From positions 25,529 to 89,528 of the forward strand of contig JABHCP010000015.1 in assembly GCA_018673485.1 (NCBI GenBank): a stretch of 64,000 nucleotides of DNA, read 5' to 3'. Origin of the DNA: Candidatus Uhrbacteria bacterium (lineage in GTDB: Bacteria > Patescibacteriota > Patescibacteriia > UBA9934). Positions 37,707-42,058 of the stretch are shown here, piece after piece; the first letter of the stretch is position 1, and every line of letters starts with the position of its first letter. Both the position numbers and the translations under genes were made by a program. Under the pieces are notes generated by a model. That model did not search any database. It was not told the origin of the DNA and worked only from the letters and a program-made list of their open reading frames with translations.

Positions 37707-39902
37707 ATGCGTACGATTTATCTGATCCTGGTCGCTATTCTGGTGGCCGGCTGTCTCCCCGCTCTTCCGGAGTATGACCCTTCGGTAGAGAAGTACGATC
37801 TGCCACCGGCAGACGCTGATGGTGATGGCTACGAGTCTGATGTCGACTGCGACGATGACGATGCCAGCATCTATCCTGGCGCAGAAGAGATCTGCGACGG
37901 CCAGGATAACGACTGCGACGAGCTCACCGACGAGGATGTGGCTCAGAGCTTCTACCTCGACAGCGACGGTGACAGCTATGGCGATCCCAACATGATCATT
38001 CAGGCCTGCGAGGCCTCAAGCGACTACGTTGACAACGCTGACGACTGCGACGATGATGATCAGGACACCTACCCGGGTGCACCTGAGCGCTGCGACGGCG
38101 ATGACAACGACTGCGACGAGCAGATCGACGAGGACCTGGTGGAAACCTGGTATCTCGATTCCGACGGCGATAGCTTCGGCAACGTCGAGGAATCGATCGA
38201 ATCCTGTGATCCGTCAAGCGCCTATGTCGCGAATCCTGACGATTGCGATGACGCTGACGCCGAGGTTTACCCCGAGGCTGATGAGTATTGCGATCTGATC
38301 GACAACGACTGCGACAGCATGGTCGACGAAGACGATGCACTCGATGCCCAGACCTGGTACTTCGACGAGGATGGCGATGGCTACGGGCTCGACGATGAAT
38401 CGATCCAGAGTTGTCAGTGGCCTGAGGGCTATGCTCGCCACAGTGGTGACTGCGATGACGGCGACATAGCCTTCAATCCCGCAGCACTCGAGGACGATTG
38501 CACCGATCCCAACGACTACAACTGCGATGGCTCAACCGGCTATGCCGACGATGACAGCGATGGTTTCGCAGCCTGTGAGGAGTGCAATGACTCAGATGCG
38601 AGCATCAATCCCGCCGCGACCGAGATCTGCGACGAGCTCGACAACGACTGTGATGGCCTCATCGACGATGAGGATGACAGCCTCGACGCATCGACCGGTT
38701 CGATCTTTTACCTCGACGGCGACGGCGACGGCTACGGCGACTCAAGCGTGGCCGACGATGCCTGCGAGCCCTTGTCTGGCTACGTGGCCGACGCGACCGA
38801 CTGCGACGACACCGATGCGGACATCAACCCTGACGCGACTGAGGTCTGCGACGAGGACGATGTCGATGAGGACTGCAACGGCTACGCTGACGACGATGAT
38901 GTCAGTGTGGATGTGTCCACGCAGACAGATTGGTTCGATGACGGCGACGGCGATAGCTACGGTGACGCCGCTTCGCTCGTCACTGCGTGTGAGTCCCCGG
39001 ACGCACATGCAGTCACCAACGATTCGGACTGCGATGATACCGACTCCACAATCAACCCCGATGCGACCGAGGTCTGCGACGAGGATGATGTCGATGAGGA
39101 CTGCGACGGTCTGATCGATGACGACGACCCCAGTGTCGATGTTTCGACCGGCCCCACCTTCTACCTGGACTGGGATGGCGACGGCTACGGTGCCGATGAC
39201 TACACGGTCACGGCTTGCGACGCTCCTTCTGGGTACGTTGAGGACAGCACAGATTGCGATGATGCTGACGTAGACGTGAGTCCCGCTGCGACCGATGAGC
39301 AGGCCACGGCCTGGGATGAGGACTGCGATGGAGACGATGGACGCGCAGACGGTTACGAGTACGTCACCAGCTATTATGGTAACTGGTATGCCTCGGGCAG
39401 CAGCTTGGTGGAGGAGTCCACCTCCAATGAGTTTTCCACTCTCGAAAGTGGAATTACTAGTTGGTACGATGTTGCTGGTTCCAGCCTCGTGGTTTCCACG
39501 CATGTGTTCTCTTCGGTCTATTCCGGTGAAATGGATGTGATCGAGTTTCCTGAGAACACGGGGACACATCCGCTCGATGGATGTGTACGCGCGGATGATC
39601 TTTCCACTAGTCTGAGCGCAGGAGTGGATTACGGGTTCGTCTTTGTGGTGGCCAATACCAGTACCACTGGTTCGACAACCATCTTCGTAGCCGAAGGTGA
39701 TGGATACGAGTACCATGTCTCTGGAGAGGGGGATTACATCATGGGTGCGCTTGCGCTCAATGCTGGTGATGAGGTCTTGGTGGGCGAGGCTTTCACTGCC
39801 TCGGACAGCTCTGAAGATCTGTTGATCTGTGCCTTGGGTAACAGTGGCGCTGATGAGATGGACTTGCGGATTAGCCACTTTGGTATCTACTCGGTGAACT
39901 AG
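37707..39902 (+). CDS. high-GC lipoprotein built from Cys/Asp-rich putative metal-binding repeats (myxobacterial-type DxDxDGYxxxxDCDDxDxxxxPxAxExCDxxDNDCD modules)
   Basis: lipoprotein signal [16 protein letters not shown]; at least 8 repeat modules; GC content far above flanking genes. Confidence 0.6.
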
Positions 39903-40189
39903 AGCGATGGCTCAGAAAACAACGAAAACCCCCTGATTCAGGGCCTAGCGGTGCTCCGCAAAGGTTGCTGGATTGGGGGATTGTGCTTTGGGCAATGTTG
40001 AGCTTCCAAGGTAGCTATTGACAAAATAGCTAAAATTTGGTAAAAAAAGGCGTTATTTTGTAGTGTTTTTTGTTTTATGTAAGTGGTATCTTTCCTTTTA
40101 CATAAGGCCAAAAGCTTCTTTCACATCTACACTTTCCCCCATTGCCACGCTGGCCTGCGTGACAATAAACCCCCAGCAAGGAGAATGTC

Positions 40190-42058
40190 ATGAGAGTTCC
40201 TCTCTTGGCTCGCGCTGCGCTGCTGGCCCTGCTCGCGCAGGCCGGTTGCTTCGTCAACAATGGCACGGAAGATGACACGGGCACTGCAGTCCAGCAGGAT
40301 CCAGGGCACGAGGTTACGCCTGGGCAGGAGCCCGAGGCCGACAGCGACACCGACGCGGACGCAGACAGCGACACCGACGCGGACGCGGATGCCGACGCGG
40401 ACGCCGACACCGACGCGGATGCCGACGCCGACACCGACGCGGACGCGGATGCCGACGCGGACGCCGACGCGGATGCCGACGCCGACGCCGACACCGACGC
40501 GGACGCGGATGCCGACGCGGACGCCGACACCGACGCGGATGCCGACAGCGACGCCGACAGCGACGCCGACACCGACGCGGACGCGGATGCCGACGCGGAC
40601 GCCGACGCGGATGCCGACGCGGACGCCGACGCGGACGCGGATGCCGACGCGGACGCCGACAGCGACGCCGATACGGACACCTCGCCCCCAGAGGATACGG
40701 CTCCCCCCGAGCCCGTCGACGAAGACGGCGACGGCTTCACCGATGACGTCGACTGCGACGATGCCGATGCGGACATCAACCCTGACGCCGACGAGATCTG
40801 CGACATGGTCGACAACGACTGCGATGGCTTCACCGACGATGCCGACTCGGATCTCGACTCCGGTTCGACCTACGTCTGGTACTACGACGCCGACGCCGAC
40901 GGCTACGGTGACGTCAGCACCACGGTCAACGCCTGTGCGCAGCCCTCGGGCTACGTCGACGACGACCAGGACTGCGACGACGCCGACGCGGACATCAACC
41001 CCGACGCCGAGGAAGTCTGCGACGAGCTCGACAACGACTGTGACGGTCTCACCGACGGGCAGGACGAAGATCTGCTCGACGGCGACAGCTGGTATGCCGA
41101 CATCGATGCCGACGGCTACGGTGACCCGGCCGAGTCGCGCTACCAGTGCGACCAGCCCTCGGGCTACGTGGCCGACGCGACCGACTGCAACGACGGCGTT
41201 GCGGCCATCAACCCCGACGCCGAGGAAATCTGCGACACGGTCGACAACGACTGCGATGGCATGGTCGACGACGAAGACGTCTGCGACACGGCCCCGCCCG
41301 AGGACACGGCCCCGCCGGCCGACACCGGTGACTCCACGCCCGAGGACACCGCGTCCCCTGAGCTCGTCGACAACGACGACGATGGCTATACCGACGACGT
41401 CGACTGCGACGACACCCGCGCGCTCACGCACCCGGGTAGCGTCGAGGTCTGCGACGACGGCATCGACAACGACTGCGACGGCGACATCGACGAAGAGTCC
41501 TGTGCAGTCACGGTGGAGGTGGTGGACAACTGCGACGGCAGCGCCACCTTCACCATCTACGGCGACCTCATGGACTACTGGGTCGACGAGGACGCGGTAG
41601 CGATGTCCTTCGACACCGAAGATGCCACGTTCATCGGTATCGGTCAGACCGATGGCAACTGCTGGGACGATTACACCGAGTGTGTCGGCCTGGTGGACTG
41701 GGACCAGGACAGCAACGGTGATGGCTCGGACGACACGTACGAACTCCTGCCGTGGCTGCTCGACTCCACGCCCTTCATCGTCTTGACCGACGACACCGTG
41801 CTGTGGCTCGACCTGCGGTATACCGCGGTCGTCGGCGACGCCTACATCGACGAAGATGGTGCGGCCACAGGCTACATCATGTACATGAGCGAAGGCTCGT
41901 GCGACGTCGAAGATGACGATGGTGGCGAAGACACGGCGGTCCCGGATGACACCGGTACCCCCGAAGACACCGCGCCTCCGGCTGACACCGCGCCCCCCGA
42001 AGACACCGCGCCCCCGACCGATTCCGACTCGCCCGACTCCGGGGACTCGGGTCTCTAG
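40190..42058 (+). CDS. high-GC lipoprotein with an (Asp-Ala)n low-complexity tract, Cys/Asp-rich metal-binding-type repeats and a PEDTAPP proline-rich tail
   Basis: signal [20 protein letters not shown]; paralogous repeat modules to the previous gene. Confidence 0.6.
40339..40680 (+). repeat. hexanucleotide microsatellite (GACGCG/GACGCC/GATGCC)n, ~57 units, encoding (DA)n with interspersed T/S
   Basis: read directly; perfect 6 nt periodicity over ~340 bp. Confidence 0.85.

Follow-up and report, generated by a model that had tools for sequence, protein, structure and literature searches.

The window analysed here is a 64,000-nucleotide stretch of contig JABHCP010000015.1 from a Candidatus Uhrbacteria bacterium, a low-GC (guanine plus cytosine) member of the Candidate Phyla Radiation (CPR). 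It contains two adjacent GC-rich plus-strand genes, here called genes 1 and 2, which on sequence evidence are paralogous and encode exported proteins built from modules of the family PF11617 (MopE modules). Comparison with relatives indicates that they are long-standing, vertically inherited residents of a locus that runs, in the Uhrbacteria clade, from rpmE through the MopE-module gene or genes to a cluster of Wzy_C and glycosyltransferase family 4 (GT4) genes. Our overall reading, to which we give a probability of roughly 0.8, is that genes 1 and 2 encode inherited surface proteins of the clade with a putative adhesin-like function, that they keep a GC-rich codon regime of their own, and that they are the product of neither a chimeric assembly nor a recent transfer. 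An earlier reading of the DNA (the original prediction) had singled out an interval whose limits, 37707 and 42058, are exactly the ATG of gene 1 and the stop codon of gene 2. The features of the two genes are as follows.

37707 to 39902, plus strand: gene 1, encoding a 731-residue MopE-module lipoprotein (PF11617, E 3.8e-52).
37693 to 37699, plus strand: GGAGGAG, Shine-Dalgarno sequence of gene 1 as read from the sequence, 7 nt ahead of the ATG.
37707 to 37754, plus strand: signal peptide of gene 1 as read from the sequence, with a canonical lipobox, LVAG/C (Cys16).
37812 to 39341, plus strand: gene 1 array of eight modules of about 66-75 residues, from regular expression and hidden Markov model (HMM).
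39342 to 39899, plus strand: C-terminal beta-rich domain of gene 1, fast-evolving, with no Pfam match.
39903 to 40189, unstranded: intergenic spacer, whose core (40022-40130) has a GC content of 0.23-0.40, at or below host composition.
40178 to 40183, plus strand: AAGGAG, Shine-Dalgarno sequence of gene 2, inside the spacer.
40190 to 42058, plus strand: gene 2, encoding a 622-residue MopE-module exported protein (PF11617, E 3.2e-28).
40190 to 40249, plus strand: signal peptide of gene 2 as read from the sequence, ...LLAQAG/C (Cys20), with Gln at -3.
40337 to 40678, plus strand: acidic stalk of gene 2, (Asp-Ala/Thr/Ser)n, about 110 residues, a (GAC GCN)n tandem array in the DNA.
40715 to 41485, plus strand: gene 2 array of four modules, with core motifs at residues 189, 262, 333 and 406.
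41495 to 41914, plus strand: C-terminal domain of gene 2, a near-orphan in an exhaustive HMMER scan.
41926 to 42036, plus strand: Pro-rich (PPEDTA)n tail of gene 2, from Tandem Repeats Finder (TRF; period 18/36) and translation.

Against a PF11617 gathering threshold of 27 bits, gene 1 scores 174.6 bits over six stretches and gene 2 98.1 bits over four, which bears out the original prediction of two paralogous proteins made of myxobacterial-type Cys/Asp-rich putative metal-binding repeats. Modules were mapped with a regular expression and with an HMM trained on the modules of the window itself; the HMM reports eight domains in gene 1 and four in gene 2, and finds the module nowhere else in the window. 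The copy numbers first proposed, eight or more and five or more, become eight for gene 1 (seven strict and one degenerate, with core motifs starting at residues 48, 114, 180, 249, 293, 366, 442 and 517) and four for gene 2. The module consensus is DxDxDGYG ... C ... GYV ... DCDDxDxxI/VxPxAxExCDxxDNDCDG, with four conserved Cys per module and acidic clusters DxDxDG and CDxxDNDCDG. In an AlphaFold2 model of gene 1 the modules appear as independent beads, with a predicted local confidence (pLDDT) of about 75-88 and an overall predicted template-modelling score (pTM) of 0.28. Both proteins are extremely acidic: gene 1 is 22% Asp and 4.5% Cys, with one Lys and a net charge of about -210, and gene 2 is 29% Asp and 3.4% Cys, with no Lys and a net charge of about -207.

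Lipoproteins were recognised by a positive n-region, a hydrophobic h-region and the pattern [LVI][ASTVI][GAS]C. The start of gene 1 is identical to that of NCBI protein MBT3230637.1, and its N-terminus and lipobox recur in the orthologues L012, L094 and P0002; by inspection, canonical lipoboxes are also present in the homologues L012, L013, L014, L016b, L017b, L092 and L094. The lipoprotein signal peptides originally assigned to both genes therefore stand for gene 1, whereas the AQAG/C of gene 2 departs from the canonical form and could equally be an A-x-A (A-Q-A) cleavage site of signal peptidase I. The stalk of gene 2 is resolved by TRF into periods of 12/30/60 with 79-84% matches, and L014, L016b and L017b have equivalent (D-T/S)n stalks. 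Between modules 3 and 4 of gene 2 lies a Pro-rich PPEDTA linker, and the C-terminus of the protein reads ...SPDSGDSGL.

Homologues of the gene 1 C-terminal domain were found only in P0002, P0028/L094 and L014, and a model built from a four-sequence alignment was poor (pLDDT 50.6). Foldseek matched the domain to carbohydrate-binding modules (CBM4, CBM6, CBM16, CBM22), EclA and the receptor-binding domain (RBD) of CDTb with E values of 1e-5 to 3e-4 and target-normalised TM-scores (TMt) of 0.45-0.56, and the CBM, EclA and binary-toxin receptor-binding matches recur in two models; tentatively, these models suggest a CBM-like or receptor-binding-like jelly roll. An HMMER search of 1.84 billion representatives with the gene 2 domain gave four hits, two of which are short orthologous fragments with 60-68% identity, the other two being long proteins of repetitive sequence, matched in 13 and 19 stretches and probably for compositional reasons. 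The gene 2 domain is unrelated in sequence to the C-terminal domains of gene 1 or L016, so that genes 1 and 2 differ in the beta-rich domain with which each ends.

The composition of the two genes is as distinctive as the original prediction had it. In a sliding 1-kb frame, GC is 0.55-0.65 at 38-42 kb and about 0.39-0.49 elsewhere, with a window mean of ~0.43. Gene 1 has a GC content of 0.58 (0.575) with a GC content at third codon positions (GC3) of 0.67, and gene 2 a GC content of 0.67 (0.675) with a GC3 of 0.86 (by codon position 0.72/0.44/0.86), so that the GC3-rich codon usage noted earlier is confirmed against the low-GC host genes of the window, whose GC3 is 0.25-0.47. When the two proteins are recoded with host codon preferences, GC reaches only 0.47 for gene 1 and 0.50 for gene 2, so that most of the excess must be synonymous, and G/C-ending codons are favoured in every amino-acid class in both genes. 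Amino-acid composition was accordingly rejected as the main cause. The excess is limited to the coding sequences (CDS) and up to ~100 nt of flank, and the single high-GC island first described is thus two GC-rich genes rather than one block, separated by the AT-rich spacer core. Because the excess ends within ~100 nt of the CDS ends, a cause linked to coding is favoured over a regional one.

The nearest species representatives of the window's prfA are from Candidatus Uhrbacteria and other Patescibacteria metagenome-assembled genomes (MAGs), with a best identity of 83%. When the HMM of the window's modules was scanned over 80 prfA-anchored loci, multi-module open reading frames (ORFs) divergent from rpmE-prfA were found at exactly the same site in L012 (prfA 83% identical), L013 and L014 (67%), and L016 and L017 (63-64%); L094 (prfA 80%) has the same arrangement as the window, and L015 retains a remnant at the site. 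Among the same loci, relatives with prfA identity of 60% or less (L018-L021) have no MopE-module ORF there. On the right flank, L014 and L095 have the Wzy_C/GT4 cluster of the window. Proteins of the relatives are built likewise: they combine a signal peptide that carries a lipobox with MopE modules and a C-terminal domain, and often have a (D-T/S)n stalk too.

Orthologues of gene 1 were identified in L012, L094, L014 and P0002. Its modules are colinear with those of L012 and L094, and diagonal identities to L094 are 53-78% (70-78% for six of seven modules), compared with 32-65% among the modules within a genome. Because identity between positional orthologues exceeds that within genomes, the modules do not evolve in concert, and concerted evolution or intragenic gene conversion was rejected. 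The plus-strand tail of gene 2 is conserved in L095/P0135 (60% identity, same synteny), and one relative of the gene 2 C-terminal domain was located in NCBI MAG GCA_001791655.1 at the edge of a contig, where the next gene downstream is a Wzy_C gene 74% identical to that of the window. Across the clade, the site holds one or two MopE genes with from 1-3 to more than 10 modules (L016:4998-9443, L017:78-4711, L014:8104-9549 and the window) and at least three types of C-terminal domain unrelated by sequence; the lipobox persists throughout, and the acidic stalk appears repeatedly. Such variation in gene number, module count and C-terminal type would be expected of a surface-recognition locus that is diversifying rapidly. 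Outside the clade, the best hits among 5.8 billion proteins do not exceed about 53% identity, with alignments spanning about 70% of the query; one of the outside proteins, P0009, is a PF11617 protein at native composition in a 72%-GC genome that is Myxococcota-like by gene content.

The GC-rich codon usage is shared by the relatives, as the following GC3 values show.

L012: MopE gene 0.71; neighbours about 0.35.
L014: MopE gene 0.73; neighbours about 0.30.
L016: MopE genes 0.93 and 0.74; neighbours about 0.34.
L094: MopE gene 0.56; neighbours 0.22-0.36.
L095: MopE gene 0.90; neighbours about 0.33.
L017: MopE gene 0.74; neighbours about 0.52.
L013: MopE gene 0.86; neighbours about 0.57.

Four-fold degenerate sites are close to saturation between the window and L012, the fraction identical at conserved residues being 0.36 in gene 1 and 0.31-0.57 in six housekeeping genes. 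The GC content of these sites (GC4) in gene 1 is nevertheless 0.67 in the window and 0.70 in L012, as against 0.18-0.34 in the neighbours. Substitutions were polarised by parsimony from singleton differences among three taxa (window, L012 and L094). In five housekeeping genes, the AT-to-GC and GC-to-AT rates are 0.110 and 0.244 per lineage, which gives an equilibrium GC4 of 0.31 (95% interval 0.25-0.38) compared with an observed 0.22-0.28. In gene 1, they are 0.233 and 0.163 per lineage, for an equilibrium of 0.59 (95% interval 0.43-0.72) compared with an observed 0.56-0.69. The difference in AT-to-GC rate between gene 1 and the five housekeeping genes (0.233 vs 0.110) is significant at P=0.011. 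Gene 1 is thus clearly near a GC-rich equilibrium of its own and is not decaying toward that of the host, and some fixation bias toward G/C acts on the MopE genes.

The bias may come from selection on synonymous sites, or from GC-biased repair after recombination with divergent homologues. Translational selection of the usual kind was rejected: ribosomal and translation genes raise the use of C-ending codons (NNC, 0.56 vs 0.40) and lower that of G-ending codons (NNG, 0.37 vs 0.48), whereas the MopE genes raise both NNC and NNG (0.60/0.83 and 0.85/0.66). Gene conversion among modules was also discarded as a cause of the GC content, the modules being positional orthologues. GC enrichment is not universal for the motif in CPR, because a PF11617-type protein encoded elsewhere in the locus of a more distant Patescibacterium (L029:16593-18590, minus strand; prfA 53%) has a GC3 of 0.43, within its genome's own range. 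One possible generalisation, which we hold with less than even confidence, is that these genes form a vertically inherited class of CPR surface genes held over deep time by a gene-specific force at its own GC-rich equilibrium (GC3 0.6-0.9 against a genome value of ~0.3). That force could be synonymous-site selection in exported, disulfide-rich, Asp-rich repeat proteins; alternatively, naturally competent episymbionts could take up environmental homologues, and GC-biased repair during mosaic recombination with these could supply the force. If the generalisation is true, compositional foreignness would mark a functional gene class rather than transfer, and the window's other GC3-rich exported orphans would share the phenomenon. 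A literature search for intragenomic GC3 heterogeneity in Patescibacteria returned nothing relevant.

The assembly was examined with contigs from several other samples and assemblers. Across the left junction, L001 spans 26876-39062 at 99.99% identity, and L003, L004 and L005 reach 38.2-38.6 kb; the right junction is reproduced at 100% by L009 from 42025, L011 from 41698 and L010 from 41036. Two NCBI Uhrbacteria protein records, annotated as 'hypothetical protein', are 100% identical to the 731-residue product of gene 1. Within 39062-41036, the gene 1 part is supported at the protein level only, by the NCBI MAGs. Three contigs match the window at 100% identity and then, exactly within a conserved motif, give way to divergent GC-rich sequence of MopE type: L002 (1-688) leaves the window sequence at 37931 for a 72%-GC MYXO-CTERM-like tail, L010 (1-566) diverges before 41036 into thrombospondin type-3 (TSP3)-like repeats, and L003 (1-95; window 38534-38620) carries 29 differences, mostly AT-to-GC. 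All of the latter fall in the contig's last 95 nt, and L003 was on that ground rejected as a strain variant. The divergent ends have about 2x coverage or are terminal. They are most simply explained as de Bruijn-graph joins through the conserved motif; real mosaic alleles are a possible alternative.

These data bear on both explanations that the original prediction had offered for the composition, a chimeric assembly and horizontal acquisition, and neither is supported in its original form. A chimera or mis-binning, with GC-rich DNA of another organism joined to a low-GC CPR contig, might account for the breaks and divergence of L002, L003 and L010 inside the repeats and for the lack of an independent contig over 39062-41036. 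Both junctions, however, recur at 99-100% identity in several samples and assemblers, a protein identical to the gene 1 product comes from NCBI MAGs, seven related genomes show this arrangement as well, and each gene has its own Shine-Dalgarno sequence in the flanking sequence, with an AT-rich spacer core between; a chimera is excluded for the junctions and very unlikely overall, with next to no probability left to it. Recent acquisition of an unameliorated 4.3-kb island from a GC-rich donor of the Myxococcota/Bdellovibrionota type would fit the contrast in GC3, the PF11617 proteins at native composition in the 72%-GC genome L093, and the IS30-like transposase 6 kb away. Of four defining features of a genomic island, however, atypical composition alone was found (GC3 0.67/0.86 vs 0.25-0.47). 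The genes occupy the site in the close relatives L012, L094, L013, L014, L016, L017 and L095, neither a flanking tRNA or mobility gene nor a close donor homologue was seen, and there is no amelioration toward the host, the equilibrium GC4 being 0.59 and the orthologues staying GC3-rich. Because three of the four features tested are absent, this is not a recently acquired island. Syntenic, module-colinear, GC3-rich orthologues in relatives with prfA identities of 63-83%, synonymous sites that are near saturation with GC4 kept, a spacer core at or below host GC, the absence of a flanking tRNA or mobility gene and the distance of the outside-clade hits (at most about 53% identity) all tell against recent transfer, which we regard as highly improbable.

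Two further explanations concern the origin of the family and the upkeep of its composition. An ancient transfer of a MopE-module gene into the clade ancestor, after which the gene descended vertically, was duplicated and retained its GC-rich codons, is compatible with inheritance within the clade and addresses only the ultimate origin of the genes. The site is empty in relatives with prfA identity of 60% or less (L018-L021), the family is very abundant outside CPR (7625 hits, including GC-rich genomes), and the proteins are almost free of Lys; on the other side, other Patescibacteria carry PF11617 proteins (L029 at native GC, L092, P0025, P0051), and retention of GC would still need an active force, so that transfer by itself explains nothing about composition. 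An ancient transfer is a real possibility on which we would nevertheless not wager, and composition is not evidence for it. The GC state might instead be kept up by gene conversion, in which patches of the genes recombine repeatedly with divergent homologues of higher GC content, environmental or paralogous, in an antigenic-variation-like mosaic and possibly with GC-biased repair. The switches to a divergent module at conserved motifs (L003 at 38534, L010 at 41036, L002 at 37931) and the doubled AT-to-GC rate are in keeping with such recombination. Against it, the modules correspond by position between genomes and do not evolve in concert, only 41% of four-fold sites agree between the paralogues, the excess stops near the CDS ends and spares the spacer, which a coding-linked cause fits better, and the divergent contig ends have the coverage or terminal position expected of de Bruijn chimeras. 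We judge this explanation unlikely.

Vertical inheritance with a maintained GC-rich regime is thus the reading that we prefer, and several points weigh against it. No independent contig covers 39062-41036, and a metagenome-wide scan for a 30-nt string of the spacer gave 0 hits. Three short-read contigs (L002, L003 and L010) depart from the window sequence inside the repeats; because they do so, MopE genes evidently tangle assembly graphs. The parsimony rates were estimated from 14 and 24 events, at sites that are close to saturation. As for the proteins, the lipobox of gene 2 is atypical, with Gln at -3, and Ca2+ binding and disulfides are suggested by the motif (Asp clusters and four conserved Cys) and by general knowledge of similar eukaryotic modules. 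Models of the gene 1 C-terminal domain are of low confidence (pLDDT 29-72, root-mean-square deviation 7-11 Å), and the CBM-like assignment is for this reason treated as a lead.

The two genes are bordered by the following features.

37229 to 37525, minus strand: CDS of rpmE, with PF01197 in the public call.
37545 to 37573, minus strand: promoter-like site of the divergent rpmE, TTGACA-17-TACAAT, 11/12 matches, with an upstream TG.
42158 to 43687, plus strand: Wzy_C gene (O-antigen ligase/polymerase-like, PF04932), first gene of a surface-glycan cluster and conserved right flank.
40127 to 42196, minus strand: spurious antisense ORF of 689 residues; the public call of the Joint Genome Institute (JGI) is 40127-42106, 659 residues.

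The divergent rpmE promoter that had been predicted is recognisable on the minus strand at 37573-37545, and the O-antigen-ligase-like gene placed downstream of gene 2 is the Wzy_C gene. Within the spacer, the best promoter candidate is a weak 9/12 match at 40159-40186, and the scan found no canonical plus-strand terminator. Searches of the window for tRNA genes and Rfam families returned nothing. An IS30-like transposase gene (HTH_38 and rve domains; 30466-31428, minus strand) lies between gyrB and ftsW and does not flank genes 1 and 2. At L095 (GCA_001791655.1), the glycosyltransferase cluster downstream of Wzy_C contains a restriction-modification pair (5524-7602), a DNA_methylase and an NgoFVII-like endonuclease with a GC content of 0.29-0.31, below that of the host.

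The long antisense ORF is present as originally described, and its dismissal there as spurious is upheld. The rival proposition, that it is a real gene as in public annotation, draws on its being the longest ORF at the locus and the choice of the JGI gene caller. Its product has no Pfam match and is low-complexity Gly/Val/Arg sequence, with a GC content at first codon positions (GC1) of 0.83, whereas the sense frame of gene 2 has PF11617 (E 3e-28), a Shine-Dalgarno sequence, a signal peptide and conserved orthologues. Open frames on the antisense strand are to be expected as a side effect of coding that is rich in GC3 and in Asp. The antisense gene has almost no chance of being real. The 622-residue gene 2 protein was not found in protein collections under the two start sites tried. 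Exact-product look-ups of the 731- and 622-residue forms, of P0001 and of the antisense ORF returned none, a 770-residue JGI call being the only one on record. CPR surface proteomes are probably under-annotated, because gene callers pick the wrong strand and the true gene 2 protein is missing from public collections. Elsewhere in the window, a 435-residue JGI call at 25973-27280 (plus strand) is a long antisense ORF over three minus-strand ORFs with signal peptides.

Further GC3-rich patches occur at 19-20.6, 23.5-24.4, 25.4-27.3 and 31.6-32.0 kb. They include ORFs with a GC3 of 0.58-0.89 at 25484-25933, 26042-26725, 26783-27199, 24013-24402 and 20179-20568 on the minus strand and at 31568-32002 on the plus strand, situated between low-GC core genes such as nusG and gyrB; a signal peptide, lipobox or membrane segment is present in several of these ORFs, and none has a Pfam match. 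Among the prfA-anchored loci examined, their homologues were found in the same strain only. They may represent the same compositional phenomenon as the MopE genes, or be true foreign orphans; such exported-orphan ORFs hint that the phenomenon is broader than the MopE genes. The stretches 19000-20100 and 23500-24000 have a GC content of about 0.55 and only short overlapping ORFs on both strands, with no tRNA, tmRNA or Rfam match even at E<=0.1.

From their architecture, the proteins are likely to be membrane-anchored, Ca2+-stabilised, adhesin-like rods with a variable distal binding domain. In this proposal, the N-terminal lipobox Cys of each protein would provide a lipid anchor in the membrane, from which the protein would project through the wall on its acidic stalk. 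Ca2+ at the Asp clusters, together with two disulfides per module, would stiffen the array into a rod, and the fast-evolving distal domain (in gene 1, tentatively a CBM-like jelly roll) would bind a ligand on a host cell or surface, so that the proteins would act as adhesin or recognition fibres of an episymbiont. A role in copper binding or acquisition, as in methanotroph MopE/CorA, is suggested by the Pfam name 'Cu-binding_MopE' and by a match to residues 4-64 of MopE* (2VOV, E 4e-4). In a PDB sequence search (2VOV chain A, 336 residues), the N-terminal motif of MopE* alone matched, leaving the beta-domain unmatched, and the module motif is rich in Asp and disulfide-type Cys, His making up 0.8% of the residues of gene 1 and 0.3% of those of gene 2. 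According to PMC3423442 and PMC3912023, two His and a kynurenine in the beta-domain form the copper site of MopE*/CorA. A copper role is very doubtful, and judged by sequence the 'copper-binding' label is not supported for genes 1 and 2.

A 25-point jump in GC with doubled GC3 reflects neither horizontal transfer nor misassembly at this locus, which corrects a tempting inference; compositional island detectors would mislabel the MopE locus in every genome of the clade. What is unusual here is a conserved, gene-specific, GC-rich synonymous equilibrium, with wrong-strand gene calls as its practical consequence. As a maintained state, it lends itself to a clean natural test that would tell selection on synonymous sites from biased gene conversion in bacteria. 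The combination of a lipid anchor, an acidic stalk, a Cys/Asp rod, a variable distal domain and glycan-gene neighbours also makes the proteins plausible attachment or recognition fibres of an ultra-small episymbiont. To our knowledge, the host-contact molecules of episymbiotic ultra-small bacteria are largely unknown.

Parts of the two proteins resemble several known systems. The distal C-terminal domain of gene 1 has its best structural matches, at the level of models, in CBM4/6/16/22, the EclA C-terminal domain and the CDTb/Ib RBD; it differs from these jelly rolls in having no sequence similarity to them, and the corresponding domain of gene 2 is unrelated. The staphylococcal MSCRAMM proteins (ClfA/B, SdrC/D) likewise place a long acidic dipeptide repeat between anchor and functional domains, the repeat plausibly serving as a spacer through the cell wall. 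Here, however, the repeat is Asp-Ala/Thr/Ser, the predicted lipid anchor is N-terminal rather than a C-terminal LPXTG, and there are no IgG-like A domains. NCBIfam MSCRAMM alignments cover the dipeptide-repeat region of gene 2 and adjacent acidic sequence; identity with the SD-repeat families was rejected, the scores of 48-56 bits (cut-offs 999-2500) being compositional and LPXTG being absent. Among eukaryotic Ca2+ modules, thrombospondin type-3, LDL-receptor class A and teneurin Cys-rich repeats are short disulfide-knotted modules with acidic clusters resembling DxDxDG or CDGxxDCxDGSDE. A published alignment ties the PF11617 consensus to the teneurin Cys-rich core (PMC3278476). The resemblance of genes 1 and 2 to these modules is at the motif level only, with no Pfam match to TSP_3 (PF02412) or Ldl_recept_a (PF00057) at E<=0.01, and Ca2+ binding here is putative.

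MopE/CorA (PDB 2VOV, 2VOW, 2VOX) is likewise secreted or surface-associated and has one N-terminal MopE* motif that aligns with the module (E 4e-4); its structures contain a structural Ca2+ ion (PMC3912023). MopE lacks a tandem array, whereas genes 1 and 2 lack the copper-binding beta-domain, and the proteins are not orthologues. Genes 1 and 2 are best placed, by the motifs they carry, as members of the known and functionally uncharacterised PF11617 repeat family, whose exported proteins likewise have tandem arrays of a module of about 30 plus 40 residues with conserved Cys and Asp. NCBI names for such proteins, 'putative metal-binding motif-containing protein' and 'MopE-related protein', have already been given to homologues in Uhrbacteria/Patescibacteria MAGs (P0025, P0051), and a literature search for PF11617 or MopE in CPR returned nothing relevant. 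Other PF11617 members carry C-type lectin, fibrinogen-C, Kelch or FG-GAP domains. Unlike these, genes 1 and 2 belong to a low-GC CPR host, combine a lipobox anchor and an acidic dipeptide stalk with lineage-specific C-terminal domains, and are persistently GC3-rich relative to their own genome.

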